Below are positions 2,352 through 20,526 of a stretch of DNA of 64,000 bases, piece by piece. How positions within the stretch are numbered: the stretch's first letter is position 1; each line of letters begins with the position of its first letter. Under the pieces are notes generated by a model that saw only the letters and a program-made list of their open reading frames with translations, was not told where the DNA came from and ran no database searches. The stretch covers positions 96,001 to 160,000 of the forward strand of contig OY759599.1 in NCBI GenBank assembly GCA_963662465.1, given 5' to 3'. Position numbers and translations under genes: made by a program. This DNA is from Desulfatiglandales bacterium. Lineage in GTDB: Bacteria; Desulfobacterota; DSM-4660; Desulfatiglandales; Desulfatiglandaceae.

Positions 2352-2356
2352 AGTAA

Positions 2357-2528: not shown

Positions 2529-2588
2529 AAATGGAAGAAAATTGACGAAAGGACTTTTGATTTTGCTTTGTTGGATGTTTAGGCGAAG

Positions 2589-3180: not shown

Positions 3181-3273
3181 ATCTGGCTTTGTAACTTACA
3201 AAATACAATAAGTCAAGCAAGAACAATTTGAGGGTTCGTTTCTTCACAGGAGACGACGGAAGACGGAGGATGG

Positions 3274-3552: not shown

Positions 3553-3601
3553 CGCAGATTAAAGTTCTTGCGCAAAAAATGCAAAGAATAAGAAGAAATT
3601 A

Positions 3602-4819
3602 ATGTCAAGAAATGAATATAGGGTCTTTCTTGTGGTGGGTGCGCGGCCGAATTTTATGAAGATTGCGCCGATTGTCAGAGCGCTTAAAGCACAAAGCGAT
3701 CCGCAGATTACGCCGATTACACAGATTGATTGGAAGATTGTGCACACCGGGCAGCATTATGATTATGAAATGTCGCAGGCGTTCTTCGATGATTTGAAGA
3801 TTCCCAAACCCGATCATTTCCTGGAGGCGGGGCCGGGGAGCCATGCGGAGCAGACGGCCAGGATTATGGTCAGTTTTGAGAAGCTTTGCGAGCAGGAGCG
3901 GCCGGATCTGGTTGTGGGCGATGTCAATTCCACCCTGGCGTGCTCCGTGGTGTCCAAAAAGATCGGCATTGAAGTGGCCCACGTGGAGGCCGGGTTGCGG
4001 AGCTTTGATCTGTCCATGCCCGAGGAAATCAACCGGATGGTGACGGACGCTATAGCGGATTATTTTTTTGTGACGGAGCGAAGCGGGGTAGAGAACCTCA
4101 AAAAAGAAGGAAAGCCCGAAGACCGGATCTTTTTTGTCGGGCATGTGATGATTGATAATCTCTTGCATCAGCTGGAGGAAGTCCGCACGAATCATTTTCC
4201 TTTTGAGCATCGGGCGCTGAAGGATAGTCTTGACGAGTATATTTTCATGACGCTGCACCGGCCCGCCAACGTGGATGACAAGGAAATTCTTAGCGGGATC
4301 GCGGGGACTTTGGCCCGCGTGGCAAAGCATGTGCCCGTCATTTTTCCGGCACATCCCAGAACCGGGAAGATGCTGGCGCATTTCGGGATTGAGCTGCCGG
4401 AAAATATTCATCGGCTGCCGCCTTTGGGGTTTCGAGAGTCCTTGTACCTGTGGAAAGATGCCAAAATGGTGATCACCGACAGCGGGGGGCTGCAGGAAGA
4501 GACCACGGCCCTGGGTGTTCCCTGCCTGACGTTGAGGGAAAATACCGAGAGACCGGTCACGGTAACGGAAGGGACGAATCAGCTGGTGACGGTTAATGAT
4601 CTCGAGGACCGGGTACTGGAAATCCTGGCGGGAAGAGGAAAAAAGGGTCGGGTGCCGGAGTTGTGGGACGGAAGAGCGGCGGAGCGGATTGTGGGGGTTT
4701 TGGCGGAAATTTCACAGAGGTCGGATGTCGGATGTCGGAGGGCCGGAAGTAGGTGGTTAGAAGCGTTAGGCGTGCCCTTTTCCCCTAGAGCTTTTCTGTT
4801 GTTTATGGATAAAATATAG
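3602..4819 (+). CDS. wecB: UDP-N-acetylglucosamine 2-epimerase (non-hydrolysing)
   Basis: VVGARPNFMK, HTGQHYD, HVEAGLRS, MPEEINR, TDSGGLQEE, RENTERP; family A insert near 3698-3728; C-terminus extended through family C repeats. Confidence 0.93.
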   Translation: MSRNEYRVFLVVGARPNFMKIAPIVRALKAQSDPQITPITQIDWKIVHTGQHYDYEMSQAFFDDLKIPKPDHFLEAGPGSHAEQTARIMVSFEKLCEQERPDLVVGDVNSTLACSVVSKKIGIEVAHVEAGLRSFDLSMPEEINRMVTDAIADYFFVTERSGVENLKKEGKPEDRIFFVGHVMIDNLLHQLEEVRTNHFPFEHRALKDSLDEYIFMTLHRPANVDDKEILSGIAGTLARVAKHVPVIFPAHPRTGKMLAHFGIELPENIHRLPPLGFRESLYLWKDAKMVITDSGGLQEETTALGVPCLTLRENTERPVTVTEGTNQLVTVNDLEDRVLEILAGRGKKGRVPELWDGRAAERIVGVLAEISQRSDVGCRRAGSRWLEALGVPFSPRAFLLFMDKI

Positions 4820-4873
4820 AAAAGCCAAACCAAATATGATCATTATCAACCCACCTAAGATGACAGAATACAT

Positions 4874-5071
4874 CTATGCCTCCTTTTCGATAAATATGGC
4901 TAATAAATATACGAAAACAGAAATAATTACGCCTAAAAAAACCAATATCGGGTTTATTTTAAGTTGATGAAACAAAGGTGCAATGACTGAAGTGGCGAAA
5001 ATGATCTTGCCAGTATCAGTTAGAATGTCTGCAATCCTTTTCTTTTGTTTTTCGTTCAGAATCATAGCCAT
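4874..5071 (-). CDS. Small two-TM membrane protein
   Basis: 65 aa, AT-rich, two hydrophobic helices. Confidence 0.55.
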   Translation of the reverse strand: MAMILNEKQKKRIADILTDTGKIIFATSVIAPLFHQLKINPILVFLGVIISVFVYLLAIFIEKEA

Positions 5072-5171
5072 TCGCTTTCCATTTCTTTAACTTTATACTC
5101 AGATTGGAGTTGTGTCAATTTAAAAAGAAGCTTCTGGACGGAGGGCTGAGGTCGGAGGTCGGAGGACGGAG

Positions 5172-5379
5172 GACAGTGTTGAGTTTTGGGTTTTGAGTTT
5201 TGAGTTGAAGGGAAAGGGCGGAAGACAGTTTTGAGTTTTGGGTTTTGAGTTTTGAGTTGAAGGGAAAGGGCGGAAGACAGTTTTGAGTTTTGGGTTTTGA
5301 GTTTTGAGTTGAAGGGAAAGGGCAGAAGATAGTTTTGAGTTTTGGGTTTTGGGTTTTGAGTTGAAGGGAAAGGACGGAG
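5172..5379 (+). repeat. 52-bp tandem repeat x4 built from family D and family C units
   Basis: Units start at 5172, 5224, 5276, 5328: gacagttttgagttttgggttttgagttttgagttgaagggaaagggcggaa. Confidence 0.95.
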
Positions 5380-5454
5380 GACGGAGGGCGGAAGACAGAG
5401 GTCGGAGGGCCTCTCCCTACTGGGCATGGAGATATGGAGGCAGCGTCTCAGGGT

Positions 5455-5820
5455 CTAGTCGATCTCGAGTACCAGCTTAAGGGCTTCGACAACCTCTTCC
5501 ATTCGGCGTGGCGGCATTGTGCCAACCAACTGGGGTTTTTTTGTCTTAGGATCGTAAAATCTTTTAGGATCCAGGGAGCGCATCTGGAAACAGAGAAATA
5601 CTGTATCTTTGGGAAGGCCCGTCTCAGCTGATGGCACACGTACATTTGTGGGGTAGTCTCTTGGCACATTCCGCGCATCTGTGCCCACTACAACTGAAAC
5701 AACGAGCGGTTGTTTATTTATGGCGTCGCTTGATATCACGAGGACTGGTCTGCGGCCCGCCTGCTCCCGACCTTTAATCGGGTTCAAATTTACCAGATAA
5801 ATTCCGCCGCGCTTGATCAT
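5455..5820 (-). CDS. mazF: PemK/MazF-family toxin
   Basis: RGGIYLVNLNPIKGREQAGRRPVLVISSD, FQMRSLDPKRF. Confidence 0.9.
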   Translation of the reverse strand: MIKRGGIYLVNLNPIKGREQAGRRPVLVISSDAINKQPLVVSVVVGTDARNVPRDYPTNVRVPSAETGLPKDTVFLCFQMRSLDPKRFYDPKTKKPQLVGTMPPRRMEEVVEALKLVLEID

Positions 5821-5823
5821 AAT

Positions 5824-6087
5824 TCACAAACCATCGTTTTCCGCTTCCGTAAACTCCTCGGACAAAACAGAACACACATCCCGGATTGCAGGGTCATCGG
5901 CCATTTCAGCCATAGCTGTTTCAAATTGATATTTTTTTTGACGTTTTGTGAAATCGATCAAAATGAAGGTGACCAGGCGATTGAAGTTATCCCGGAGTTC
6001 AGGAGGCGCTATAGTGCGCAATTCTTCAACCAATTCATTTGGAAGTGCGATGCTGCGACGGATTGTCTTTTTTGCCGTATTTTTCAT
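5824..6087 (-). CDS. Putative RHH antitoxin
   Basis: Start reassigned to MKNTAKKTIRRSIALP after a GAGGG RBS; the extra N-terminus in the ORF track is translated repeat DNA. Confidence 0.75.
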   Translation of the reverse strand: MKNTAKKTIRRSIALPNELVEELRTIAPPELRDNFNRLVTFILIDFTKRQKKYQFETAMAEMADDPAIRDVCSVLSEEFTEAENDGL

Positions 6088-6302
6088 TTCACCCTCTTTG
6101 TAACCATAATCATGCACATAAAAAGTGTTGATGTCAACATGGAAATTGTTCATGGAAGAATCCAGAGGTTGGGAAGGGACAGAGGGCAGGGATGACGGAG
6201 GACGGAAGGCAGAGGACGGAGGACGGAAGGTAGAACAAGTGGATGATCTGATGGATGGCTGATAAGCTGATGGATAATAATCATATGGAAGTTCTGTTCT
6301 TG

Positions 6303-6332
6303 TTGACAAATCATATCACCTGGTGGTACACT
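6303..6332 (+). promoter_or_regulatory. Sigma70-like promoter with overlapping operator palindrome for the relE-HTH pair
   Basis: TTGACA-18 bp-TACACT; palindrome tatcacc-t-ggtggta. Confidence 0.6.
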
Positions 6333-6340
6333 CAGCGACA

Positions 6341-6727
6341 ATGAAAAAAGTTTTCAGAACCCGAACTTTCACCCGCTGGATGCGAAAGACTGGTCTGACC
6401 GACGAAATGCTTTGCCAGGCGGTTTCTGAGATGATGCAAGGGCTTGTGGACGGCGATCTGGGTGGCAACTTGCTGAAGAAGCGGATTGGCCTGTCCGGCC
6501 GGGGAAAACGTGGCGGCGGTCGAACGATTGTTGCCACCAATCGTTGTGACCGCTGGTTTTTCTTGTACGGCTTTGAAAAGAACGAACGCGCCAATATCAG
6601 CAAGGATGAAATCAAGGCGCTTCGGGAGTTAGCCGGACAATACCTGGCGTTTGACGACAAACAGATTGAATGGGCAGTCCGTAGCGGGAAATTCATGGAG
6701 GTGAATTTTGACGACAACAAAGCGTAA
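6341..6727 (+). CDS. RelE/HigB-family toxin
   Basis: FRTRTFTRW..DGDLGGNLLKKRI..GKRGGGRTI..LYGFEKNERANI. Confidence 0.9.
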   Translation: MKKVFRTRTFTRWMRKTGLTDEMLCQAVSEMMQGLVDGDLGGNLLKKRIGLSGRGKRGGGRTIVATNRCDRWFFLYGFEKNERANISKDEIKALRELAGQYLAFDDKQIEWAVRSGKFMEVNFDDNKA

Positions 6728-7028
6728 CAGCCGAATTTTGAAAGAAGTTCACGAAATGGCAAGTGACCTGAACGAGATTGGGTTGATCGACAAACGGCGG
6801 ATGCGGGAATTTGACGCTCTGTGCAACTTGGACGTCGAGGAAATACCGCCCCAAAAGATCAAACAGTTGCGTGAGGAGGCGCATATCAGTCAAGCTGTTT
6901 TTGCCGCTGTGCTGAACATCAGTTTGTCCACCATTCAAAAGTGGGAGATCGGCGACAAGAAACCCAGCGGCCCATCCCTGAAGCTGTTGAGCCTTATTGA
7001 ACGTAAAGGTTTGGAAGCTGTACTCTAA
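6708..7028 (+). CDS. HigA-like XRE antitoxin
   Basis: SQAVFAAVLN..QKWEIGDKKPSGPSLKLL. Confidence 0.9.
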   Translation: MTTTKRNSRILKEVHEMASDLNEIGLIDKRRMREFDALCNLDVEEIPPQKIKQLREEAHISQAVFAAVLNISLSTIQKWEIGDKKPSGPSLKLLSLIERKGLEAVL

Positions 7029-7138
7029 AATCCGATCCGAACCCCGGTGACGGAGGACGGAGGGCGGAAGACGGAGGACGGAAGGGCGAAAAGGTGAGAA
7101 GTGGCAGAGGTTCCATACAGCTAATGCCAATAACCCAT

Positions 7139-7511
7139 AACGAATAACCAGCCCAGCGACCCCAGCACCCGTACCATTTTTGAGTTTTCTGCATTTATCC
7201 TTCCTTTCGATTGCCCACCAGAGTAACAACCACCGCCTCATTACACGAGATACCAAAACAAATGAACCCATTAAATCCTGAAGAGACGAAAAATGTCAGC
7301 GGAATTCCGCCCATTGTTCTGGGTGTTGTGGATTTCTGTTTGCTGAATCTGGCATTTTTTCTGCTGAATTACTGGAAACGGGGATCTTTTGAGTTGGCCC
7401 CAAAATATGGGAAGCTGCTGCTGGCCTTTTATGGGGTCTGGTTCCTGGTTTCCCTGGCCAATAAGAAATTTCAGTGGCGGGAATACGCGGGGTTGGGTAG
7501 AGGGCTGTGGA
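7139..7511 (+). pseudogene. Duplicated 5' fragment of the sugar transferase gene
   Basis: Near-identical to 9981-10350; ends just before family D repeats. Confidence 0.9.
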
Positions 7512-7650
7512 GGCCCTGAACTGCAGTTTTGAGTTTTGAGTTTTGAGTTAAAGGAAACGTCCTGATTATGGGGGGTGATGGGAAGATCTTTAAAGACAGT
7601 TTTGGGTTATGGGTTAGGGAACAGCAGTTTTGGGTTTTGAGTTTTGAGTT

Positions 7651-7821
7651 ATGAGTGAAAGGAAGATTGATGCGCGGACTTTTGAGTTTGCTCTGGTTGT
7701 GGTGGATGCGTACAAATTTCTTCTGGGGAAAAAGGAGTTTGTGCTTTCGAAGCAGTTTTTAAGGGCTGGTACTTCGATCGGTGCGAATGTGACGGAGGCC
7801 CAAGCTGCCCAAAGCACTTAA
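7651..7821 (+). pseudogene. Four-helix-bundle protein (23S rRNA IVP-like), truncated at 56 aa
   Basis: My translation: MSERKIDARTFEFAL..KKEFVLSKQFLRAGTSIGANVTEAQAAQST*; ATG directly follows family D heptamers. Confidence 0.85.
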
Positions 7822-7917
7822 TGGGGGACGTTGGCAGTTCTGTTAGTTTATTAGACAGGATCAACAGGATCAACAGGATAAAAGAAAAGAGTTATCAGTA
7901 TCGTTATCCATTTCGGT

Positions 7918-7980
7918 TCATTTCGGAATGAGGCCGGCAACCAGCACATTGGTGTCGATGATGAAGGTGCGGGGGCTCAT
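7918..7980 (-). pseudogene. PIN-domain toxin remnant
   Basis: MSPRTFIIDTNVLVAGLIPK*; ATGA overlap with the upstream antitoxin. Confidence 0.7.
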
Positions 7981-8213
7981 CGCGTTCGATGAATACGGGT
8001 TTCTTCTATGGCGAGGCGAGTGGCTTCTTCTTGATTATGTTGTGCCTGAGACCGAGCGCGTTCGGCCAGTTGGCGGGCGCTTTCCATGGGTTTGATGCCG
8101 CGAAGCTGCAAACTCTCCTCAATGATTTGGCCGATACTACGCCCTTGCCGGACTGCGGTTTCTTTGATCGCACGATGCAAATTGTCGTTAAGCGTAATAG
8201 TTAGTCGGCCTAT
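7977..8213 (-). pseudogene. CopG/RHH antitoxin with ATA at the expected start codon
   Basis: AAGGAGG-taacc-ATA then GRLTITLNDNLHRAIKETAVRQGRSIGQIIEESL. Confidence 0.65.
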
Positions 8214-8361
8214 GGTTACCTCCTTAATTTTGTGTGACCCTTTTGCCACATTAACACCAAAGCACCAATGGGTCAATATTTTGACAGGATCAGAAGACAG
8301 AGGGCCAAATGAAAAGAGGCTTGAAAAGTAACACTTGGTGTGATACCATTGGTTATGTTCC

Positions 8362-8724
8362 ATGAGGGTTTTCAAAAATACTTGGTTCCGCCGTTTTGCA
8401 CGTGACCAGAAGATCACCGATTATGCCCTCCGTAATGTTGTTCAGAGAACCGAGAGCGGTCAGATTGATGCCAATCTGGGCGGAGGCGTGGTCAAACAAC
8501 GGGTTGCTCGGCCAGGTTATGGGAAGTCCAAAGGTTACCGAACCGTTATTCTGTACCAGGCGGGGGAAAGGGCGTTTTTTGTTTATGGATTTTCCAAAAG
8601 TCAGAGAGAAAACATCCGAGAAGATGAAAAAAAACAGTTCAAGAAGATGGCCGGTCACGTTCTGGAGCTCTCAGAAGAACAGTTGAACGAATTGGTAACT
8701 ATGGGGAAGTTTGAGGAGATCTAA
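8362..8724 (+). CDS. RelE/HigB-family toxin
   Basis: MRVFKNTWFRRFAR..DANLGGGVVKQRVARPG.GKSKGYRT. Confidence 0.9.
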   Translation: MRVFKNTWFRRFARDQKITDYALRNVVQRTESGQIDANLGGGVVKQRVARPGYGKSKGYRTVILYQAGERAFFVYGFSKSQRENIREDEKKQFKKMAGHVLELSEEQLNELVTMGKFEEI

Positions 8725-8728
8725 GGCG

Positions 8729-9046
8729 ATGGTGAAGAGATATACAAGTGAAGCTTTTGCCGCGATCCATGAAACCATGGAGGCACTGCATGAGATTGGC
8801 GCGGTTGACAAAAAGACCATGCGCGAATTTGATGAGGCTTGTTTGACCCCTGTTCGTGTTTTGAACCCAGAGGAGATTAGGCTGATTCGGTTGCGTGAAA
8901 ATCTGTCGCAGCCGGTCTTTGCGCTTTATCTGAATGTATCGAAAAATCTGGTTTCTGATTGGGAACGAGGCGTTAAAAAGCCAGGCGGTCCAGCATTGAA
9001 GTTGCTGACGGTGATCGACAAAAAAGGGTTGCAGGCGATTGCGTAA
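8729..9046 (+). CDS. HigA-like XRE antitoxin
   Basis: KTMREFDEACL..SQPVFALYLNVS..WERGVKKPGGPALKLL. Confidence 0.9.
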   Translation: MVKRYTSEAFAAIHETMEALHEIGAVDKKTMREFDEACLTPVRVLNPEEIRLIRLRENLSQPVFALYLNVSKNLVSDWERGVKKPGGPALKLLTVIDKKGLQAIA

Positions 9047-9385
9047 CCCGGGGTCAGGCTTTCCTTGTTGTCGTTTTGCAGTGGAGGTGCTGGGGAGGAC
9101 AGCGGTATTGGGCGTTTAAAAACAGTTTTGGGTTTTGAGCTGGGGGGACTGAAAAGCGGTTTTGATGGCGGTTTTTCTTAAGGCAGACCTCAATATTCTG
9201 ACAGGATTAACAGGATGGACAGGATAAAAGAAAGTGAAAGGCCAGCGGGACGCTCTTTAATAATTCAATAACTTACTGAGGTTATTACAAAACAGAGGAC
9301 GGAGGACGGATGTCGGAGGTCGGTGGTCGGTGGTCGGAAGTAGGCGGTTAGAAGCGTTAGGCGTGCTCCCTTACGGCAGGCAATT

Positions 9386-9968
9386 CAAACCCAATGAATC
9401 AGCTAAATTCTGAAGAAATGAAACATGTCGGCGGAATTCCGCCCGTTGTTCTGGGTGTGGTGGATTTCTGTTTGCTGAACCTGGCGTTTTTTCTGCTGAA
9501 TTACTGGAAACGGGGATCTTTTGAGTTGAGCCCCATCTATGGGAAGCTGCTGCTGGCCTTTTCAAGAAGAGAATTGCGATGCCTGGACAGGGAAAACGTG
9601 GGGGGTGGAGGAGCTTTCTCACAAGCCTGGTGGATCGAAAAGGCATTGACGCAGTTGCCTGATCTAAAAAAAAGTAACTCGCGCAGAGACGCCAAGACGC
9701 AAAGAAGAGAAGTTTTTTTGTTTTTCTCTGCGTCTCCGCGTCTCTGCGCGAGAATATAGAGACTTTCTTATAAGAAACAGATTCAAACATATCTTTGGCT
9801 TACGGGTTGCAGGCTGGGGTATCTGTTGAATTTCGGTGGGGCCCTGATGAAACAGGGTATTACCAGGGCTGTCAATAATCTTGAAGAATAAATTATCTCG
9901 CGCAGAGACGCGGAGGCGCAGAGGGAAGAAGGGTTTTTTGGTTTTTCTTTGCGTCTCTGCGCGAGAAT
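9386..9968 (+). pseudogene. Collapsed duplicate of the 10.1-13.1 kb unit (sugar transferase 5', RelE fragment, HTH 3', hairpin B, GxxExxY 3', hairpin B)
   Basis: 9624-9757 matches 12508-12643; 9770-9891 matches 12915-13036; 9386-9562 matches about 10095-10269. Confidence 0.85.
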
Positions 9969-10100
9969 AAAATAAGATGAAACGAATAAGCAGCCCAGCG
10001 ACCCCAGCACCTGTACCATTTTTGAGTTTTCTGCAATCCTTCCTTTCGATTGCCCGCCAGAGTAACAACCACCTCCTCATCACACGAGATACCAAAACAA

Positions 10101-12098
10101 ATGAACCCATTAAATTCTGAAGAGACGAAATATGTCAGAGGAATTCCGTCCATTGTTCTGGGTGTTGTGGATTTCTGTTTGCTGAATCTGGCATTTTTTC
10201 TGCTGAATTACTGGAAACGGGGATCTTTTGAGTTGGCCCCAAAATATGGGAAGCTGCTGCTGGCCTTTTATGGGGTCTGGTTCCTGGTTTCCCTGGCCAA
10301 TAAGAAATTTCAGTGGCGGGAATACGCGGGGTTGGGTAGAGGGCTGTGGACCCTGGCCCGATGCGGGCTGTATCTGGCCTACTGTGTGGCCGTCATGGTA
10401 GTGATCATGGGCCTCTATGGCTATTCCAGGGGGCAGGTGTTCGGGACCTGCCTGGTGTTCGTGGGATTGGAAGGGGTCGTGTTCTGGGGTGTGTATTTCC
10501 TGCTTCGGCGGTCCAATGGGGGGGACGTAAGGCGGGAACCATTGATGGTGGAGCGCCCTGCCCGAATTTCCTGGCGGCTGATGGTGGTGGATTTTGTGCT
10601 GGTGGGGGTTTCCTTTTTCGTGGTCAATTATCTGAAACGGGACGGCTTTCATGTTCTTCCGGATTATGAGAAACTGCTGCTGTTGATTTATGGGTTGTGG
10701 TTCGTCTGTTCGCTGGCCACCCGGAAGTTTGAACGGCTGGATTACGTGAATTACTACCATGGCCTCTGGCCGTGGATCAAGGCGATGATTCTGTTGGCCT
10801 TTTCCATGGGGGTGATGGTTTTTTTGTTTCGGTTTCGGTATTTTTCAAGAACCCAGGTGTTCGGGCCCATGGTCGTGCTGATGGTGTTGGAGACGGTTTT
10901 CTACCGGTTTTATTTTGAGCGCAAAAAACGGGTCGGCGCCGAGGGGGATATTGAATCCGCTGATACAGTGTCCCGCATCCTGAAGCAGGAACCGTTGACG
11001 GTGGAAACGGATCTGGAGGCCCTGAAGCAGGCGTTTTTGTCGCCCATTCGAGAACGGTTGCGGGATCGGTACCTGAAAAATCATTCGGGGCTGTTTTCGC
11101 TCATGGACCGGTCCATGGATCTGGCGGGCATTTTAAGGGCGGAAACGGCCATTCGAAACAGCAGTGAAATGCTCTATTCCGATACGGTGGGCGAGCGATA
11201 CATGCGGCTGTTCGTTAACCTGCGGAAGATCAATGATATTCGTTATATCAACCAGTATTTTCTGGCGGTGCACAATTTGTTGATTCCCGGGGGGTACCTG
11301 GTGGGGCGCGCCCATACCCTTGCCACCCATCGGGAATGGATGATCCGGAAGTTTCCGCGGCAACTGGCCAATGCCCTGTACGCAGTGGATTTTCTGTTTA
11401 ACCGGGTGATGCCCAAACTTCCATGGGTCAAGCAGGTTTATTTTTCCGTGACCAGGGGGAAGAACCGGGTCATGAGCCGATCGGAGTTGCTGGGCCGGCT
11501 TTGTTTCTGCGGGTTTGAGATTGTGGGGGAAGAAGATATTGACGAACGGTTCTGTTTTGTGGTGCGAAAGGCCAAAACCATCTCCATGGTGGAAAATCCG
11601 TCTTATGGTCCTCTGGTGGGGTTTAACCGGATCGGGGCCGGCAATAAACCCATTCGAACCTATAAATTCCGGACCATGCACCCCTATTCCGAATTTTTGC
11701 AGGATTATGTGTATGAGAAAAGCGGCCTTCAGAAGGGGGGAAAGCTGGAGAATGATTTTCGCATTACGGTCTGGGGAAAGGTGATGCGGAAACTCTGGCT
11801 GGACGAGCTGCCCATGCTGTACAACTGGGTGCGGGGGGAGCTGCAGATCTTTGGGGTGCGGCCGTTGAGCGCGCACTATTTCAGTTTGTATCCAGAAGAT
11901 TTGCAGGAATTGAGGGGGCGGGTGAAGCCGGGGCTGGTGCCGCCGTTTTATGCGGATATGCCGGTGACGTTTGAGGAGATTTGTGAGTCGGAGCGGCGGT
12001 ATATTCTGGCTTATTTGGAGCGGCCGGTTTGGACTCAGGTTAGGTATTTTTGGAAGGCTTTTTATAATATTGTGTTTCGGGGGGCTCGGAGCGGGTAG
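10101..12098 (+). CDS. Sugar transferase (priming phosphoglycosyl transferase family) with a long membrane N-terminus
   Basis: C-terminal YKFRTMH..D.RIT..G..MRKLWLDELPMLYNWVRGELQIFGVRP; internally duplicated TM block. Confidence 0.85.
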   Translation: MNPLNSEETKYVRGIPSIVLGVVDFCLLNLAFFLLNYWKRGSFELAPKYGKLLLAFYGVWFLVSLANKKFQWREYAGLGRGLWTLARCGLYLAYCVAVMVVIMGLYGYSRGQVFGTCLVFVGLEGVVFWGVYFLLRRSNGGDVRREPLMVERPARISWRLMVVDFVLVGVSFFVVNYLKRDGFHVLPDYEKLLLLIYGLWFVCSLATRKFERLDYVNYYHGLWPWIKAMILLAFSMGVMVFLFRFRYFSRTQVFGPMVVLMVLETVFYRFYFERKKRVGAEGDIESADTVSRILKQEPLTVETDLEALKQAFLSPIRERLRDRYLKNHSGLFSLMDRSMDLAGILRAETAIRNSSEMLYSDTVGERYMRLFVNLRKINDIRYINQYFLAVHNLLIPGGYLVGRAHTLATHREWMIRKFPRQLANALYAVDFLFNRVMPKLPWVKQVYFSVTRGKNRVMSRSELLGRLCFCGFEIVGEEDIDERFCFVVRKAKTISMVENPSYGPLVGFNRIGAGNKPIRTYKFRTMHPYSEFLQDYVYEKSGLQKGGKLENDFRITVWGKVMRKLWLDELPMLYNWVRGELQIFGVRPLSAHYFSLYPEDLQELRGRVKPGLVPPFYADMPVTFEEICESERRYILAYLERPVWTQVRYFWKAFYNIVFRGARSG

Positions 12099-12101
12099 AT
12101 T

Positions 12102-12180
12102 ATCTCGCGCAGAGCCGCAGAGGCGCAGAGAGGGAAAGGATTTTTTGTTTTTTCTTTGCGACTTAGCGTCTTTGCGCGAG
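12102..12180. repeat. Family B hairpin
   Basis: tctcgcgcagagccgcagaggcgcagag ... ctttgcgacttagcgtctttgcgcgag. Confidence 0.9.
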
Positions 12181-12231
12181 GTGATTTTTGGTTTCTTTGC
12201 GGGAGAGTGAGGGGGCGGGCGGTGGTCTGTA

Positions 12232-12546
12232 ATGAAAAATCGATCTGACAGTATTCTCGCGGTCGTTCATGAGACCGCAAAAGGTTTGCGCGATGCGGGT
12301 ATTATGAATGAAATAACCATGCGTGAATTTGATACGCTATGTCTGTTTCCCGTTAAGACATATCAACCACGGGAAATTAAAGAGATACGGTTGCGCCATC
12401 GGGTTAGCCAGGCGGTATTCGCTGCCTACCTGAATGTAAGCAAGACTTCTGTGGCAAGCTGGGAGTCGGGCGGGAAAAAACCCGGCCCAGCGGCAGCCAA
12501 GCTCCTTAGCTTGGTGGATCGAAAAGGCATTGACGCAGTTGCCTGA
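12232..12546 (+). CDS. Orphan HigA-like XRE antitoxin
   Basis: TMREFDTLCL..SQAVFAAYLNVS..WESGGKKPG; no intact toxin upstream. Confidence 0.85.
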   Translation: MKNRSDSILAVVHETAKGLRDAGIMNEITMREFDTLCLFPVKTYQPREIKEIRLRHRVSQAVFAAYLNVSKTSVASWESGGKKPGPAAAKLLSLVDRKGIDAVA

Positions 12547-12562
12547 TCTAAAAAAGAAGTAA

Positions 12563-12638
12563 CTCGCGCAGAGACGCCAAGACGCAAAGAAGAGAAGTTT
12601 TTATTGTTTTTCTCTGCGCCTCAGCGTCTCTGCGCGAG
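12563..12638. repeat. Family B hairpin, left flank of GxxExxY gene 1
   Basis: ctcgcgcagagacgccaagacgcaaag ... ctctgcgcctcagcgtctctgcgcgag. Confidence 0.92.
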
Positions 12639-12652
12639 AATATAGGTTTTTT

Positions 12653-13036
12653 ATGACGGAAAATGAGATTGGGACGATTGTGGTTGATGCGGCTGTGAAG
12701 GTTCATATGGCGCTGGGTCCGGGTCTTTTGGAAAGCGTCTACGAGATTGTTCTCGCTCATGAGCTTTCAAAGAGGGGACTGCATGTGGAAAGGCAGATTC
12801 CCATTCCCATACAATATGATCGGATCAAGTTTGATGAAGGTTTTAGGGCAGATATCATTGTAGAAAAAAAAGTAGTGCTTGAACTGAAATCTGTTGAGAA
12901 GATTACGCCTGCGCATAAGAAACAGATTCAAACATATCTTCGGCTTACGGGTTGCAGGCTGGGGTATCTGTTGAATTTCGGTGCGGCTTTGATGAAACAG
13001 GGTATTACCAGGGCTGTCAATAATCTTGAAGAATAA
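12653..13036 (+). CDS. GxxExxY protein (PD-(D/E)XK fold)
   Basis: LGPGLLESVYE, FRADIIVE..VVLELKS, QTYLRLTG..LGYLLNFG. Confidence 0.93.
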   Translation: MTENEIGTIVVDAAVKVHMALGPGLLESVYEIVLAHELSKRGLHVERQIPIPIQYDRIKFDEGFRADIIVEKKVVLELKSVEKITPAHKKQIQTYLRLTGCRLGYLLNFGAALMKQGITRAVNNLEE

Positions 13037-13040
13037 ATTA

Positions 13041-13123
13041 TCTCGCGCAGAGACGCAGAGGCGCAGAGAGAAAAAGGGCTTTTTTTGTTTTTTTTCTTAG
13101 CGCCTTGGCGTCTTTGCGCGAGA
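13041..13123. repeat. Family B hairpin, right flank of GxxExxY gene 1
   Basis: tctcgcgcagagacgcagaggcgcagag ... cttagcgccttggcgtctttgcgcgaga. Confidence 0.92.
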
Positions 13124-13536
13124 ATAGAGAGACTTTGTGCGAGAAATCTAAAAACTGGCCCGGGCGGGTGTTGGTGGCGTCTTATGTATTGATTGCCATT
13201 GCCGCGGTTGTCCCATACGGTTCCAAAGTTCAAAGTGTTTCAGTGGTATCCATCGGGCTTGACAAGATTGTCCACTTTATCGGTTTTGCGTGCATGGCGG
13301 TGTTTTCCCTGGGTGCCGGAAGAGGCGGTCCCTTTTGGAAGAAGATTTTTCTTGTTTTTATGGTGCTGGTTTTCGGTGTCTTAATTGAATTTGTCCAATA
13401 TTATTTGTCTTATCGAACCTTCAACCCGGTGGATATCGCCGCCAATCTTTTTGGGATGCTTTTTGGGATTTTGGTGTGGTATCTTTTCCTGGCGCGTGTT
13501 TTGAGAAGACGTGCGGAGAAGGGCCTTCCGGGTTAG
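13105..13536 (+). CDS. vanZ: VanZ-family membrane protein (start uncertain)
   Basis: DKIVHFIGF, IEFVQ....RTF...DIAANLFG. Confidence 0.8.
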   Translation: MASLRENRETLCEKSKNWPGRVLVASYVLIAIAAVVPYGSKVQSVSVVSIGLDKIVHFIGFACMAVFSLGAGRGGPFWKKIFLVFMVLVFGVLIEFVQYYLSYRTFNPVDIAANLFGMLFGILVWYLFLARVLRRRAEKGLPG

Positions 13537-13569
13537 ATGACTACGGTTCTTGTTTAAGTAAATAAAATG

Positions 13570-13596
13570 GCCGGCCTTTGGGTCGGCTTTTTTTTT
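13570..13596 (+). terminator. Intrinsic terminator
   Basis: gccggcc-tttg-ggtcggc followed by T9. Confidence 0.7.
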
Positions 13597-13731
13597 GATC
13601 CACAGATTACGATCCACAGATTACGCAGATTACGCAGATTACAGACCTCAATATTCTGACAGGATTAACAGGATTAACAAGATAAAAGAACATGGATGTA
13701 AGTATCCTGTAAATCCTGTAAATCCTGTCAA
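13597..13731. repeat. Family A tract followed by an inverted pair of family E (9-mer CAGGATTAA)
   Basis: gatccacagattac x2, gcagattac x2; tgacaggattaacaggattaacaagata ... tatcctgtaaatcctgtaaatcctgtca. Confidence 0.9.
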
Positions 13732-13768
13732 AAAACAATGGGGAAGCAGGTAGCGGGGAGGGAGCATT

Positions 13769-16441
13769 ATGATAAGGATTTTTTGGTTGGGATTGTTGTG
13801 TTTGGTTTTACCGAATGTGGCAACGGGTGAGGTGGTAAAAGGGATTTACGGGGTGCCGTCTATTGCGGAACGGGACCCCTCGAGTTATGTGGGAGATATG
13901 GAAAAGGCCGGGGTGAATGCCGTTTTTGTGAAGCCGGATCGGGATACGGTGAAATGGTTCAAGGACAGAGGGTTTCAGGTGTTTGTTTCCATTGATGCTT
14001 ATGGTGGGTCGCGGGCATGGAAACAATTTCCGGATTCCCGTCCGGTGTTGGCGGATGGGTCTCTTTTGGGGGAAAACCCGGAATATGCCTGTCATGGTGG
14101 CGCATGCCCGAGCCATGAGGGGTGGCAGCGGGAGAGGCTTTCATATATCGCTGGATTGATCAAGGATTTCGAGGGGCAGGGTTTGTTCATTGATGGGATC
14201 TGGCTGGATTATATTCGGTATCCGGGTCGGTGGAGCGTTTTGGATCCGAAGATTCCGGATACCTGTTACTGCGAGAGATGTTTGGGTAAATTTTCAAAAG
14301 AGATGGGGATTGAGTTTCCCATAGGGTTCTCGCGCAGAGACGCAAAGACGCAGAGAAGGGAAGAAGGGCAGAGGTCGGATGTCAGCGGTTGGGCCGTGGA
14401 GGACGAAAAAGATGGGATGATTGGATGGGTGGCAGGGAGCAACACAAAGGAGGTGTCTCGGTGGATCAAAGAGAACTGTCCTTATGAGTGGATGGTGTGG
14501 AAGAAACGGCAGATTAACGGTTTTGTGGAAAAAGTGAGGGGGGTGTTGAATGAGAAATCGCCGGATCGCCGACCACTTTTAGGAATTTTCCTGGTTCCCT
14601 GGACAAAAGGGGAAAGGGGGAACGGGGTTTCCTACAGCTTTGCTCAGGATGGGTTTGAACTGGCGAAATATGCGGATGTGATTTCGCCCATGGTGTATCA
14701 CAAGAAGGTGGGGCGGTCGGAAGCGTGGGTGGGGGTTATGACCCGGTATTATGAGGAGCGGGTTTCGTGCGAGGTTTGGCCGATTGTTCAGGCCATGGAT
14801 TGCACGGTTGAGGAATTTGCGGCGGTTATGCGGTATGCTGGTGAGGGAGGGGCGGATGGCGTTCTGGGGTTTCCGTTTAGGGCTGTGGAGAAGGCGGGGT
14901 TGTGGGAGGGGTTTCGGGGATTTAACCGGGCGGTGAATTTGCTCAAATCCACAGATTACGTGGATTACAGTGATAAGAAGGTAAGAGGATTAGAAGGTGA
15001 GAAAGTTAGTGAAGAAAGTGGGGTGATTGAGATTCGGCCCGAGTATGGGGAATGTGGGGAGTGGGTGGTTCCGTTGCGGGGTTGTGAGGCGGGGGTCGTC
15101 TATGAGTTTCGGGGGGAATTTTGGCAGCGGGTTTGGGAGAATGGGGCTTATCCGATGGTGTTGCTTTGGGGGAGGGAGTTTTTATTGAATACACACTGGA
15201 AGAGCAAGGTGTTTCAACCGCTGCGGGTGTATGTGAGGTGTCCGGGTGAGGTGAGGGATCAGACGTTTCGGTTTAAGAACTGCAACCCCGAGAAAGAAAT
15301 ACGGATGCGTAATCCTGAGTTGAGGCGGTTTTATGGGTTTGCTCCGGAACCGGGCGTGCCTTTGAAGCGGGATTTTTTTGATGAACATTTTTTCCCCATC
15401 GGGGTTTATGGGGCCAACCTGAAAAACCTGGAGGAGATTAAAAAGCTGGCCATCAATACGGTGGTGCTGGGTGGGACGGGAAAAAAGCTCAGGGAACAGG
15501 TGGAAAAGTGTCATGAGGTGGGGTTGCGGTATGTGCTGTCGACGCCCCATGATCCGGATCGGTTGCCGGTGTATCTGGATCAGATTTCGGGGTATGTGAG
15601 GCCTTACGATATGGCGTTTTATGTGAATGATGAACCGGGGATTCATTCGTTTCCGACGGGGAAGGCGGTGGATGTGAACCGGTTGATCAAGGAACGGTTT
15701 CCGGATTGTGCCACCTGTATGGCCATTGTGCGGCCGCAGGTGTGTGGGGAGTATAAGGATGGGGCCGATTTCTTCATGCTGGATCAGTATCCGGTACCGT
15801 TTATGCCATTTGGGTGGCTTTCCGATAGTATGGATTATTGTGCGGCGTGTTTGGGATCCGCAGATTACGCAGATTACGCGGATTACACTGAAAAGAAGGT
15901 TAAAGGTTTAGCAAGGGGTCGGCTGGCGGCGGTGATTCAGGCATTTGGGGGAGAAACGCGTTTTGATCATCCGAGGTTGCCGACTTGGCAGGAGATGGAT
16001 TGTCTGGCGTTTTTGTCGGTGGTGCATGGGTCGCGGGGGATTTTCTTTTATACGTATTCGTGGATCGGGAAGACGGAGGAGGGTCGGGAACGGCTGGGTC
16101 GGGTGGTGGGCCGGTTGAACCAGGTGTACCCGTGGCTGGTGGTGGAGAATTCAGGGGAGAAGGTTGGGGTGGAGATGCTTTCGGGCAATCGGTTTGATCC
16201 GAAGGGACGGGCGGCGGTGCAGTGTTGTCTTAAGCGGAAAGGGGATGAATTGATGGTGTTTGCGGTGAATACTATTGGAACTGGGGTGGAGTGTTTGCTA
16301 GAGGCTGAGAAGGTTAGAGGTTTAGAAGGTAAGAAGGTTAGTGAGGTGTTTTCGGGGGAGGATTATGTGGTTCGGGATGGGAAGATTCGGGTTCGGCTGG
16401 GGCCTTATGGGGTCAAGGCTTTTATCCACAGATTACACTGA
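13769..16441 (+). CDS. Secreted glycoside-hydrolase-like protein, probably two TIM-barrel domains, with several in-frame repeat inserts
   Basis: Signal peptide; DGIWLDYIRYPG, DVISPMVYH; second domain FFPIGVY..YVNDEP..LDQYP. Confidence 0.65.
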   Translation: MIRIFWLGLLCLVLPNVATGEVVKGIYGVPSIAERDPSSYVGDMEKAGVNAVFVKPDRDTVKWFKDRGFQVFVSIDAYGGSRAWKQFPDSRPVLADGSLLGENPEYACHGGACPSHEGWQRERLSYIAGLIKDFEGQGLFIDGIWLDYIRYPGRWSVLDPKIPDTCYCERCLGKFSKEMGIEFPIGFSRRDAKTQRREEGQRSDVSGWAVEDEKDGMIGWVAGSNTKEVSRWIKENCPYEWMVWKKRQINGFVEKVRGVLNEKSPDRRPLLGIFLVPWTKGERGNGVSYSFAQDGFELAKYADVISPMVYHKKVGRSEAWVGVMTRYYEERVSCEVWPIVQAMDCTVEEFAAVMRYAGEGGADGVLGFPFRAVEKAGLWEGFRGFNRAVNLLKSTDYVDYSDKKVRGLEGEKVSEESGVIEIRPEYGECGEWVVPLRGCEAGVVYEFRGEFWQRVWENGAYPMVLLWGREFLLNTHWKSKVFQPLRVYVRCPGEVRDQTFRFKNCNPEKEIRMRNPELRRFYGFAPEPGVPLKRDFFDEHFFPIGVYGANLKNLEEIKKLAINTVVLGGTGKKLREQVEKCHEVGLRYVLSTPHDPDRLPVYLDQISGYVRPYDMAFYVNDEPGIHSFPTGKAVDVNRLIKERFPDCATCMAIVRPQVCGEYKDGADFFMLDQYPVPFMPFGWLSDSMDYCAACLGSADYADYADYTEKKVKGLARGRLAAVIQAFGGETRFDHPRLPTWQEMDCLAFLSVVHGSRGIFFYTYSWIGKTEEGRERLGRVVGRLNQVYPWLVVENSGEKVGVEMLSGNRFDPKGRAAVQCCLKRKGDELMVFAVNTIGTGVECLLEAEKVRGLEGKKVSEVFSGEDYVVRDGKIRVRLGPYGVKAFIHRLH

Positions 16442-16452
16442 TTACGGGGATT
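16424..16452 (+). repeat. Family A arm, left flank of GxxExxY gene 2
   Basis: atccacagattacactgattacggggatt; also supplies the stop codon of the upstream gene. Confidence 0.88.
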
Positions 16453-16455
16453 AGG

Positions 16456-16827
16456 ATGGAAGATGAGAGGTCTTATAAGGTTATTGGGGCTGCTATGGAG
16501 GTGCATAAGGGGTTAGGTTGTGGTTTTCTTGAAGCAGTGTACCAGGAGGCACTTGAGAGGGAGTTTAGAATTCAGGGAATTCCTTATATTTCGCAGTATG
16601 AGATTCAAATTGTTTACAAAGGGGTCGTACTGAACAAAACGTATATCGCGGATTTTGTTTGTTATGAAAAAATAATTGTGGAAATTAAAGCTTTATCAAA
16701 AATGTCTGGTATTGAGGCTGCGCAGGTCATAAACTACCTGAAAGCGTCAAATTTTAAGATAGGTCTTCTTCTCAATTTTGGAGCCAAATCCCTGGAATAT
16801 AAACGCTTCATCCATAACAATCAGTAA
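16456..16827 (+). CDS. GxxExxY protein (PD-(D/E)XK fold)
   Basis: LGCGFLEAVYQEAL, YIADFVCYEKIIVEIKA, QVINYLKA..GLLLNFG. Confidence 0.93.
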   Translation: MEDERSYKVIGAAMEVHKGLGCGFLEAVYQEALEREFRIQGIPYISQYEIQIVYKGVVLNKTYIADFVCYEKIIVEIKALSKMSGIEAAQVINYLKASNFKIGLLLNFGAKSLEYKRFIHNNQ

Positions 16828-16858
16828 AATCCGTGTAATCTGCGTAATCTGCGGATCC
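16828..16858 (-). repeat. Inverted family A arm, right flank of GxxExxY gene 2
   Basis: aatccgtgtaatctgcgtaatctgcggatcc; its reverse complement matches the solo arm at 652-681. Confidence 0.92.
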
Positions 16859-16875
16859 TAATCAGTGGGTAAAAA

Positions 16876-19119
16876 ATGGAAAAAGCAGCATACATCATAT
16901 ACCTAACCATCCTCCTCCTCAGCATCTTCATGTTCGGGGCGGTGCATACCTACATGTACACCCTGATGACCCTTGGGGTGTTGGCGGCGACTGTTTTCCT
17001 TCTTTGGAAGAATGTTCGGAAGGACTACAAAAGCAGGGAATACCGGTTTCGGGTGCCCCGGAACAGTTTGCATGTGGGGTTTGCGGTGCTGCTGGGATTC
17101 CTGGTTTTACAGATGGTTCCCCTGCCTTCTTTTGTGGTGGATTTTCTGTCGCCGGAAGCATCGGTGGTGGCTGAAAAATCGTTTTCGGCGGTGGAATTGG
17201 TGAATAGCCCTGAGGCGGAAAAGCCGTGGTTTTTCCTTGCGGCCTATGGGTATCCGGTTCGCATGTCGATGGTTCGGTTTGTGGTTTACGGGTTGTTTTT
17301 CTTTGGTTTCCTTCAGACCCTTCAGTCACGCAGGCGAATTAATGTGGCGGTTTCGTTTCTGTTGGCCATGGGGTGTTTTGAGGCCCTGTATGGGCTCATG
17401 GAGACCTATTCCGGGTCGCACAAGGTGTTGTGGTACACCATGAATTATGCCAAAGAACGGGTGAAAGGCACTTTTATCAATGGCAATCATTTTGCCGCTT
17501 ACATGGCCATGGGCGTGGTTCTGGCGGCGGCCTTTGCGGGGGCCATTGCGCCGGAAAAACGTGTCAGCCGAAATAATTCCAGACGGAAGCCAAGTCTGAG
17601 TGCAAGGGTCGCCTCTTTTCTGGAAGGGGAAGAGGCTTTGTTCAAGCGGGTTCTGGTGGGGTTTTCCGGGGTGCTGATGGGGATCGGGTTGATCTTTTCA
17701 GCCTCCCGGGGCGCTATTTTGAGCTGGGCCGGGGCTATGTTTCTGATGGGGTTGCTGCTGGTTTTGCGGAAACAATATCGACGAAAAGGGGTTTTGCTTA
17801 TCGGTATTTTTCTGTTGATTTGCGGTTATGCGGTTCAAATCGGTGTGGAGTATCCTCTGGAGCGGTTTATGAAGATGGAATCGGGGATGGAAAGCCGGTC
17901 GCGCTATGCCGCCAGGACCATGGACCTTTTTGAGGATTTTCAAGTGGCCGGCGTGGGGGTCGGGAATTTCCAATATGCGTTTCCCAAATACCAGTCGGAG
18001 AAAGATAAGAAAAAGTACTATATTTTTGCGCATAATGACTGGGCCCAATATATGGCGGAGGCGGGTATTTTAGGGCTGGGCTTGTTGCTGGGTGGGGTCG
18101 GGTATTACCTTTTCAAGACCCTCAAGCTGTGGGCCAGGCGGAAGGATGCCTATGCGGTGTGCCTGGGGGTGGCGCCGGTTGTGGCACTTGTTTATATCGG
18201 CCTGCATTCCTATGTGGAATTTACGCTGCATACTCCGGCAAACGTGCTCATTCTGTTGTCCATCATGGCCATCGGGCATGCGGCCCTTCATTTGGAACGG
18301 CATCATCGGCGGGATGTGATGAGTTACCGGTATTACAATCTTCCTTTGAAATATAAGGGCGGGGTGGTGTTGCTGTTGATTCTGGGACTGATCGGGTGGA
18401 CGGGGTATTGGAGTATTCGGCATTTCATGGGGGAGGTGTATTGCAATACGGTGCCTAACAGCACCTTGAACCGGGATAAGCGGCCGCCGGTGGGCGAGGT
18501 GGTGCGGGCGGTTGAGTGGGATTCGGGGAATGCTGCTTACTGGTTTAAGCTTGGATCCGCAGATTACGCAGATTACACAGATGGAAAAGGAAAAGATGTC
18601 TCGCGCAAAGGCGCAAAGGCGCAAAGAGGGGAAAGGCAGGGGTCAGAGGTCAGAAGTCTGAAGTCAGAGGACAGAGGTCTGAAGTCGGTAACAGAAATCG
18701 GCGAAAATCTGTGTAATCTGCGGATAATGGCTTTGGAGAGATCTGTGGAACTGAATCCTTTTGACGCGCAGTACCATCTTCGGTTGGGGTGGGAATATGC
18801 GCATTTGTGGCAGGAAAAGGATTATCATGTGAGATGGCTGCCGGCGGCGGATATCAGCATGGATCGGGCGGCTTATTTTGCGGGGGTGAAGAACCCGCAC
18901 CTGCATCAAGAACTGGGGAATTACTGGACCATGCGGAGCAGGTCGGTGATGCCCAATGATCCATTGCACCATGAGGCGTGGGCGAAGGCTTGTTGGCATT
19001 ACCACAAAGCGCAAAGTCTTGAGACAGGAGGGGCGTTGAAGCGGATGAAGAAGGAAATACGGGGGTATGTTTGGAATTTTTATCCGGATGAAGACTATAT
19101 CGCGCAAGTAATCAATTAG
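16876..19119 (+). CDS. O-antigen ligase (Wzy_C) family membrane protein with TPR-like C-terminus
   Basis: GTFINGNHFA, SASRGA, GVGVGNF, AHNDWAQYMAEAGILG, many TM helices. Confidence 0.85.
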   Translation: MEKAAYIIYLTILLLSIFMFGAVHTYMYTLMTLGVLAATVFLLWKNVRKDYKSREYRFRVPRNSLHVGFAVLLGFLVLQMVPLPSFVVDFLSPEASVVAEKSFSAVELVNSPEAEKPWFFLAAYGYPVRMSMVRFVVYGLFFFGFLQTLQSRRRINVAVSFLLAMGCFEALYGLMETYSGSHKVLWYTMNYAKERVKGTFINGNHFAAYMAMGVVLAAAFAGAIAPEKRVSRNNSRRKPSLSARVASFLEGEEALFKRVLVGFSGVLMGIGLIFSASRGAILSWAGAMFLMGLLLVLRKQYRRKGVLLIGIFLLICGYAVQIGVEYPLERFMKMESGMESRSRYAARTMDLFEDFQVAGVGVGNFQYAFPKYQSEKDKKKYYIFAHNDWAQYMAEAGILGLGLLLGGVGYYLFKTLKLWARRKDAYAVCLGVAPVVALVYIGLHSYVEFTLHTPANVLILLSIMAIGHAALHLERHHRRDVMSYRYYNLPLKYKGGVVLLLILGLIGWTGYWSIRHFMGEVYCNTVPNSTLNRDKRPPVGEVVRAVEWDSGNAAYWFKLGSADYADYTDGKGKDVSRKGAKAQRGERQGSEVRSLKSEDRGLKSVTEIGENLCNLRIMALERSVELNPFDAQYHLRLGWEYAHLWQEKDYHVRWLPAADISMDRAAYFAGVKNPHLHQELGNYWTMRSRSVMPNDPLHHEAWAKACWHYHKAQSLETGGALKRMKKEIRGYVWNFYPDEDYIAQVIN
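18552..18726 (+). repeat. In-frame nested insert A-B-C-A(inverted) inside the ligase gene
   Basis: Translates as GSADYADYTD..SRKGAKAQR..QGSEVRSLKSEDRGLKS..ENLCNLRI. Confidence 0.88.
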
Positions 19120-19351
19120 AAAAATTACCCATTTCGGCTCAAGGCCGTTTTGGGTAAAGGATCAAGGAGAAAGACCTTATTTAGAAGGGGCTGAACCGCT
19201 TAAATTTGGCATGGTTGCTCGGCGTGAGAGATAGGGCGTGTTTTGATACACCTTGAAATCAGTTGGTATGAATTGATTTAACGCTTGCGCTCCGGTTCTT
19301 TATGTTATATTTTTGTATAACTATCGTCAAGCGAATGCAAGGAGGAATCAA

Positions 19352-19953: not shown

Positions 19954-19985
19954 CCATTTTTTCCGCGCAATATAGAAATAGGGGA

Positions 19986-20430: not shown

Positions 20431-20434
20431 GGGG

Positions 20435-20524: not shown

Positions 20525-20526
20525 AG

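Follow-up and report, generated by a model that had tools for sequence, protein, structure and literature searches.

In-frame repeat blocks in three polysaccharide genes of a Desulfatiglandales bacterium: cassette arms probably translated in tolerant loops

Three polysaccharide genes in a window of 64,000 nucleotides, the whole stretch of Desulfatiglandales DNA that was analysed, carry six blocks of short tandem repeats within their open reading frames. On sequence grounds each block consists of one arm or several stacked arms from the inverted tandem repeats that elsewhere in the genome enclose GxxExxY genes or genes for four-helix bundles. We consider it likely that they are left-over cassette arms residing in tolerant loops and linkers, where they are probably translated and where variants that break the frame or bring in stop codons are removed by selection. 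Translation with selection is favoured over removal at the RNA or DNA level because of the frame and stop counts, the purifying selection on the gene cores and the five blocks that form no hairpin. The locus would offer a clear example of selfish, non-coding DNA that has repeatedly become protein sequence at fixed sites, and among relatives all states can be seen: empty, filled, swapped and broken. It also links GxxExxY and the four-helix bundle, two very widespread and functionally uncharacterised families, and the long-noted bacterial tandem repeats of 7-9 nt to a testable process in which arms would be cleaved and their flanks converted. Caution is called for in annotation, since unusual low-complexity segments in proteins of such bacteria are likely to be repeat-derived, and arm-bearing genes split short-read assemblies at the arm loops.

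The genes and their repeat blocks

The features discussed below all lie on the forward strand:

3602..4819, +, WecB-type UDP-GlcNAc 2-epimerase of 405 aa (TIGR00236, 281 bits, cut-off 210)
3698-3727, +, WecB arm: solo forward family A, 9-nt period, residues 33-42
4720..4739, +, family C array (7-nt) in the WecB C-terminal tail, read through
12563..13124, +, GxxExxY gene (12653-13036) with a family B hairpin on each side; source type of the B arm
13769..16441, +, 890-aa protein of predicted glycoside-hydrolase-like fold (pLDDT 89.8)
14327-14437, +, S1 of the 890-aa gene: 111 nt; B, C and a third arm, all forward
14948-15007, +, S2 of the 890-aa gene: A and F arms at a domain boundary
about 15854-15912, +, S3 of the 890-aa gene: A and F-like arms
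about 16299-16341, +, S4 of the 890-aa gene: F array
16424..16858, +, complete A cassette: forward A arm, GxxExxY gene 16456-16827, reverse A arm 16828-16858
16876..19119, +, O-antigen-ligase-like membrane protein of 747 aa (PF04932); C-terminal part helical-repeat in the model
18553-18726, +, ligase block of 58 codons: forward A, forward B, forward C, reverse A

All six blocks described in an earlier note on this DNA are present with open frames, at the positions given there or a few bases off, among them the A-B-C-A' block of roughly 58 codons in the ligase-like protein. Family A is read in different frames, as had been claimed; all three forward ones are used, one in WecB, one in S2, S3 and the ligase block, and one at the end of the 890-aa gene (16424-16441). 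The start of S1 at 14327 was right but its extent had been drawn too short: the block reaches 14437, and the overlooked third array, of 8-nt period, lies close to that end. The family C array through which WecB also runs had likewise been missed.

One short-read contig of run X2 extends across 13750-19150 and matches it exactly, with neither gaps nor differences, and the WecB arm is spanned by contigs of run X1. The blocks are therefore no long-read artefact; since the window may itself derive from these two runs, the agreement proves nothing further. Contigs of run X3 also match parts of the stretch exactly, S1 included, and were given no weight, the kind of run being unrecorded. In three genomic regions, short arrays of period 6-10 reach densities of 34-62 per 50 kb, where the median is 8.

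The 890-aa and ligase genes occur in one copy each in the genome. The 890-aa protein matched no Pfam or NCBIfam family, and its model matched amylase, dextranase and galactosidase families in Foldseek (TMq 0.24-0.29); TPR Pfam families were found on three homologues of the ligase-like protein. S1, S2 and S3, together with the greater part of the ligase block, form low-confidence loops inside otherwise confident models. The arm-derived residues at S4 and at ligase positions 611-620 are modelled with confident structure, the models there drawing on alignment rows that carry the ancestral helix; the ligase reverse A arm (residues 611-617) falls in a predicted helix.

Cassettes, sites and turnover among relatives

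The cargo of the cassettes is either a GxxExxY gene (PF13366, TIGR04256; PD-(D/E)XK) or a four-helix-bundle gene (PF05635). Terminal inverted repeats, a feature of MITEs, are present in full cassettes and empty hairpins and absent from solo arms; the family B hairpins at 12563-12640 and 13041-13124 have z values of -8.5 and -8.2. The forward arm of the A cassette provides the stop codon of the 890-aa gene. This cassette is missing from the 890-aa/ligase junction in contigs of runs X4 and X6, and between the window and the related locus L001 it shows 5 differences in 437 nt where the flanking genes show 52 in 371 and 58 in 525. At locus L130 an A cassette takes the place of the middle of a beta-CASP gene, a case in which insertion went along with deletion at the expense of the target. 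With the window copies as queries, neither an inverted partner nor a cargo gene was found for the F arm and the third S1 arm. When stacked arms were sorted by GC skew, forward arms stood ahead of reverse ones in most composites, as judged by eye. Of 243 ends of duplicated segments, 61 lay no more than 25 nt from an arm (background 6.4%), a figure inflated by arm masking and taken as a hint only.

Comparison with arm-free relatives divides the sites, so that the word "inserted" used in the earlier note fits only S1, S3 and WecB, where length was gained; at S2 and S4, and over part of the ligase block, a linker was replaced instead. S1 adds 111 nt to the usual 24, S3 measures 75 nt against 18 (57 nt longer), and the WecB site 45 nt against 21, with nine residues more than PDB 4neq. 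By contrast, S2 is shorter than the arm-free median (105 against 171 nt), S4 is of equal length (42 against 45 nt), and the 171 nt at the ligase site stand against 87. Because these lengths are shorter, equal or partly matched by the arm-free linker, the arms at S2, S4 and in part of the ligase block are read as standing in for ancestral sequence. S1, whose site is empty in L001 and in run X6, is flanked by a 4-nt direct repeat (14323-14326 and 14434-14437); this repeat is a putative target-site duplication of the kind made by MITEs, the empty alleles being too diverged to confirm it, and the other sites show replacement.

The same six positions hold other arm families and other lengths in relatives. 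L001 (core dS 0.43) lacks S1 and has a C array at S3 and an A array at S4; three paralogues within the genome differ at one linker; seven arrays are stacked in frame across 342 nt in L139; and unrelated repeat types occupy the same loops in L014 and L033. The WecB arm lies inside an 82-nt patch almost identical to that of L001: its 82 nt contain 4 differences, where 255 were counted over 1014 nt elsewhere; the patch was picked after being seen, and conservation is an alternative to conversion. Near-identical patches of this kind in otherwise diverged alleles point to recombination or gene conversion.

A cassette or arm would enter through recombination between short similar sequences, often deleting target DNA, and the cargo gene would subsequently be lost. 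The first arm in a loop would then become a target for further arms, so that stacks build and swap, and patches of arm and flank would pass between diverged alleles by gene conversion. More tentatively, this turnover might be driven by a homing-like system in which GxxExxY nucleases encoded by the cassettes cleave their cognate arms or adjacent DNA and repair carries arm and flank from one diverged allele to another, rewriting fixed loops and even the helix of the ligase repeat domain; we regard this extension as possible but doubtful.

Translation and selection against other readings

The anchored segments from relatives comprised 295 distinct ones, 40 of them arm-bearing, one more having been removed for a run of N. 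Of these 40, all distinct, 39 keep an open reading frame in register, and of 37 distinct combinations of site and length, 36 have a length divisible by three; units of 7, 8 and 10 nt occur among the in-frame arrays. Within the arms there are 0 stops in the frame that is read and 33 and 36 in the other two. Frameshifts were found in one arm-bearing segment (L096, at S4) and in 3 of 254 arm-free ones. The relatives share descent, so that these counts overstate independence, and genes interrupted by a long cassette, or by a break of the assembly at an array, escape the anchor method. The gene cores are judged to be under purifying selection from core dN/dS values of 0.14-0.31 for the 890-aa gene (6 loci), 0.14-0.19 for the ligase gene (4 loci) and 0.09 for WecB (against L001). 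Together with the low-confidence loops of the models, the frame and stop statistics and this core range of 0.09-0.31 support the first of the two readings offered in the earlier note, that selection keeps the genes functional while selfish repeats add loop peptides.

The second reading, removal or skipping at the RNA or DNA level, fares poorly. Excision by an RNase III-type enzyme with rejoining, or ribosome bypass, would yield proteins without arms, and the ligase block does contain a suitable structure, its two A arms pairing in a 20-bp stem (z -6.8); moreover, full cassettes share the stem-plus-ORF layout of intervening sequences, which are excised from rRNA by RNase III (PMC4990558). However, the other five blocks have neither hairpin nor partner arm (z -1.1 to +1.4), and with their blocks taken out S2, S4 and the ligase site would be left with no linker, against roughly 57, 15 and 29 codons in arm-free relatives. 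Excision could not rebuild the L130 gene, whose middle is already lost, and it leaves unexplained both the 39 of 40 segments in frame and the absence of stops from one frame only. We hold RNA-level processing to be very unlikely overall, if still conceivable for the ligase hairpin. Excision or switching of DNA in part of the population, as phase variation of surface-polysaccharide genes, appears very unlikely as well. Slippage of 7- and 8-nt arrays would shift the frame, array lengths vary among duplicated intergenic copies in the genome, and L096 is frameshifted at S4; yet the in-gene arrays are short, imperfect and nearly always open, the X2 contig keeps all five blocks of 13750-19150 unchanged, and none of the X2 joints listed skips a block, in contigs that do lose rare variants.

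That the genes are decaying and their open frames a short-lived remnant is suggested by the abundance of gene fragments and duplications in the region and by WecB, which lacks two residues near position 103 (both present in L001, L102 and 4neq) and has the read-through tail. Because of these two features, and of the further epimerase genes in the genome, the window copy of WecB may be under relaxed constraint. As a general account decay is highly improbable, with dN/dS far below 1 against the closest relative, no second copy of the 890-aa and ligase genes, arm-bearing open frames kept in many relatives, and every invariant column of a 78-row alignment kept by the window protein (by construction of the list). 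Selection might instead favour the arms as a supply of changeable surface patches on polysaccharide enzymes, in line with high turnover at fixed sites, the confinement of arms to surface-polysaccharide regions and the confident structure at S4 and ligase 611-620. Unrelated repeats in the same loops and the use of any frame fit tolerance, and the structure models rely on rows with the ancestral helix; we give such adaptive variation very little credence. Tolerated, translated arms under selection for frame remain the preferred explanation.

Comparison with known systems

Mostly open-access texts were searched for a link between such arms and these cargo genes or in-frame loops, and none was found. 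Rickettsia palindromic elements, named as a parallel in the earlier note and the nearest published counterpart, are described as non-autonomous palindromes of about 150 bp that reside in frame within working genes and encode a conserved peptide (PMC10969869). The likeness holds for in-frame residence in functional ORFs and reading as an extra peptide, and is loose otherwise: here mostly single tandem arms are found and only the ligase block folds, no one peptide or frame is conserved, and many unrelated families are stacked and swapped, often replacing ancestral sequence.

The ORF-bearing intervening sequences of 23S rRNA in Coxiella and Leptospira (PMC4990558) hold a small gene between complementary ends. 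Full cassettes are built likewise, and their four-helix cargo belongs to the same Pfam family, PF05635, but the arms lie in or between protein genes and not in rRNA, their ends consist of tandem arrays, GxxExxY is a frequent cargo, and the remnants inside genes are apparently translated rather than excised. A model for possible GxxExxY action is offered by the Ssn nucleases (GIY-YIG), whose small gene is reported to lie amid cognate NTS/SRM repeats, gene-less copies of which are numerous (PMC11893778). Here too a small nuclease-like gene is flanked by cognate repeats and gene-less copies abound; the cargo is instead a predicted PD-(D/E)XK protein of PF13366 or a four-helix bundle.

Short tandem heptamers that border genes, partly arranged as inverted pairs and in a minority of cases lying within ORFs, have been described in Beggiatoaceae (PMC4679880) and in Xanthomonas and Nostoc (PMC4692102), and in the former stop content is said to decide which orientation survives in ORFs. 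The arrangement resembles ours; the accessible parts of these papers mention neither a GxxExxY or four-helix link nor fixed loops that turn over between relatives. In Borgs, amino-acid tandem repeats evolve quickly in ORFs under frame selection and give disordered products, as the arms may do, but they arise locally from units all divisible by three (PMC9879509), whereas the present arrays often have units of 7, 8 and 10 nt and belong to families that are also seen as cassette arms.

Arm blocks in three genes and their probable source cassettes

The earlier note had reported repeat blocks within three polysaccharide genes and had read family A in different frames. Its family letters A, B, C and F are kept here. 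All six blocks are present and in frame, and family A is read in all three forward frames. Run X2 has a contig that covers 13750-19150 with zero differences and contigs of run X1 cover the WecB arm, X2 and X1 each being possibly the window's own source.

Blocks, their positions in the window and the distance between fixed protein anchors (nt; window vs median of arm-free relatives)
WecB arm, 3698-3727: 45 vs 21
S1, 14327-14437, in the 890-aa gene (13769-16441): 135 vs 24
S2, 14948-15007, same gene: 105 vs 171
S3, 15854-15912, same gene: 75 vs 18
S4, 16299-16341, same gene: 42 vs 45
Ligase block, 18553-18726 (gene 16876-19119): 171 vs 87

The families to which these short tandem arrays (arms) belong recur around small cargo genes. 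Family A, as forward and reverse arm, encloses two GxxExxY genes, one at 16456-16827 and one at 7.09 Mb of the genome (G000), family B hairpins stand on both sides of the GxxExxY gene 12653-13036, and four-helix-bundle genes of this genome are enclosed by C-type and other heptamer arms; not all of the 21 cargo genes and gene fragments inspected have a clear inverted pair. The layout of the A-arm cassette is seen again in L001, the closest relative fetched (a Desulfatiglandales MAG), and in locus L095. The cassette at 16424-16858 is missing from contigs of runs X4 and X6, and S1 from an X6 contig. Since the arm families enclose cargo genes and empty sites occur in these contigs, the blocks within genes are arms that lack cargo. 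Searches with the F arm and the third arm of S1 found no cassette for either. At 7660-7815 a truncated four-helix-bundle gene (PF05635 8-54) follows forward heptamer arms and has no reverse arm, and a GxxExxY gene located beyond the three array-dense regions (G000 5563239-5563586) has its own 9-nt arm family in the layout forward, gene, forward-reverse.

Reading frame and variation at the same loops

Among the protein homologues listed (50 of 112 for the 890-aa protein, 120 of 247 for the ligase) many other repeat-like blocks occupy the same positions, and because these homologues were retrieved as whole proteins they are no test of frame. The frame was tested on DNA loci retrieved by short patterns or six-frame search, giving 356 anchored segments; of the 295 distinct ones 41 contain an array of period 7-10, and one of these was dropped for a run of N. 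Arm-bearing segments were open and in frame in 39 of 40 cases, 36 of the 37 distinct site-length combinations were divisible by three, and stops within the arrays numbered 0 in the read frame vs 33 and 36 in the two alternative frames. The sole arm-bearing exception (L096, at S4) is near background, since 3/254 arm-free segments are also frameshifted. Nominal P values overstate the significance, as kin are non-independent and the set misses genes that a long cassette or an assembly break has interrupted.

The loops themselves vary. L001 (core dS 0.43) has no S1 and holds different arm families at S3 and S4, and in L139 seven arrays are stacked within 342 nt. One linker varies among three same-genome paralogues of a putative oxidoreductase-acetyltransferase fusion; among four paralogues of a putative nucleotide-sugar dehydrogenase-like gene an array is present in two and absent from a third, and the fourth terminates shortly past its arrays. 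Unrelated repeat types, which we take to be palindromic REP-like repeats, form in-frame blocks of 495-687 nt at S2 and S4 in L014 and at S2 in L033.

Decay of the genes, raised in the earlier note as untranscribed pseudogenes, conflicts with their conserved cores, less certainly so in the case of WecB. Masking of the blocks gives dN/dS values of 0.14-0.31 for the 890-aa gene (6 loci, one of them partial), of 0.14-0.19 for the ligase (4 loci; another, of 21 codons, was ignored) and of 0.09 for WecB against L001, the WecB comparison with L102 being saturated. WecB scores above the TIGR00236 cut-off; relative to PDB 4neq it has nine extra loop residues at the arm and misses two near 103. The model of the 890-aa protein (pLDDT 89.8), for which Foldseek returned glycoside hydrolases of several families, is of low confidence only at S1, S2 and S3, with S4 at 90-91. 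In the ligase model residues 576-600 score <50 and residues 611-620, which include the reverse A arm, score 91 within helix 604-626. This helical arm is a prediction only, because the model leans on ancestral alignment rows; by eye, 12 of the 120 listed homologues have a reverse-A-type peptide at this site, and others show a different reverse arm or retain the ancestral helix.

Removal of the arms at the RNA level, the other branch offered in the earlier note, leaves the pattern of frame and stops unexplained and would take away needed linkers. Self-pairing is confined to the ligase block (20-bp stem, z -6.8); the other five fold no better than shuffles, so that removal would have to act on five sites with no stem. 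Switching at the DNA level was not seen in the contigs, though contigs drop rare variants. Adaptive use of the loop variation is inseparable from tolerance on these data.

Replacement of ancestral sequence and proposed route of entry

That the arms had been inserted, as first proposed, holds for S1, a clean insertion of 111 nt where the length in relatives is nearly constant; the anchor distances show that at S2, S4 and the ligase site arms replaced ancestral sequence. In L130 (G000 7091301-7092600) a GxxExxY A cassette with a doubled forward arm lies in a beta-CASP nuclease gene, flanked on one side by the start of the metallo-beta-lactamase-fold domain (profile 5-61 of 196), on the other by the last third of the beta-CASP domain (78-120). 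The middle of the gene is missing, so cassette entry with deletion can happen. In L130 the target contributes a few bases to the inverted match at either end.

An 82-nt patch at the WecB arm differs from L001 at 4 positions vs 255/1014 in the rest of the gene; the patch was picked after the fact, and the best other WecB window differs at 10/82. The cassette 16424-16860 differs from L001 at 5/437, its flanking genes at 52/371 and 58/525. Recent transfer of arm and flank between diverged alleles would produce such patches, with strong DNA-level conservation as the other possible cause. Many duplicated segments end close to arms, an estimate biased by masking, and the 4-nt direct repeat bordering S1 is insufficient evidence for a target-site duplication. 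We infer that arms arrive by gene conversion and by recombination between short stretches of similar sequence, for which the GxxExxY protein would be a candidate cutting enzyme.

Genomic setting and relation to known systems

The genome is a single contig of 8.16 Mb, of which three regions (around the window, at 7.0-7.15 Mb and at 8.1 Mb) are dense in arrays of period 6-10, with 34-62 per 50 kb vs a median of 8. In the first 20 kb of the window a polysaccharide locus is interrupted by short tandem arrays, fragments of genes and toxin-antitoxin pairs. At 218-9046, 12232-12546 and 19313-20772 toxin-antitoxin genes (PIN, three PemK, two RelE, two Gp49-like, HTH antitoxins; one orphan) are crowded between arm arrays. 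Fragments amid arm arrays at 7095-7518, 9386-9562 and 9770-9950 are two 5′ pieces of the sugar-transferase gene 10050-12098 and one 3′ piece of a GxxExxY gene. A 3′ fragment of a putative deacetylase-like gene lies at 3274-3552; the intact copy has a C array in frame, and the piece directly past the array is found again at several places.

Copies and pieces of the deacetylase-like gene in G000
85039-85803
92371
95455
7119865

Higher-order arrays with heptamer arms inside each unit, possibly stacked empty cassettes, were found at 5163-5382 (52-nt unit, four copies), upstream at G000 86.3-88.9 kb (105-nt unit, ~25 copies) and at G000 8148-8149 kb. Two pairs of duplicates were observed, of 12 kb (G000 29.1-41.2 kb and 8082-8094 kb, 99.99% identical) and of 10 kb (91.9-102.0 kb and 8151.6-8161.6 kb, 99.5%); the latter includes a second, identical WecB and terminates precisely where the contig does, so it is possibly an assembly overlap.

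A search of mostly open-access literature found no publication on these arms within genes. This locus adds a frame test across relatives, ancestral linkers replaced by arms, arm families swapped at fixed loops, and conversion-like patches. Rickettsia palindromic elements resemble the arms in how they work and differ in size, palindrome and conserved peptide; the parent cassettes are similar to rRNA intervening sequences bearing ORFs and, in layout, to Ssn nucleases with their repeats.
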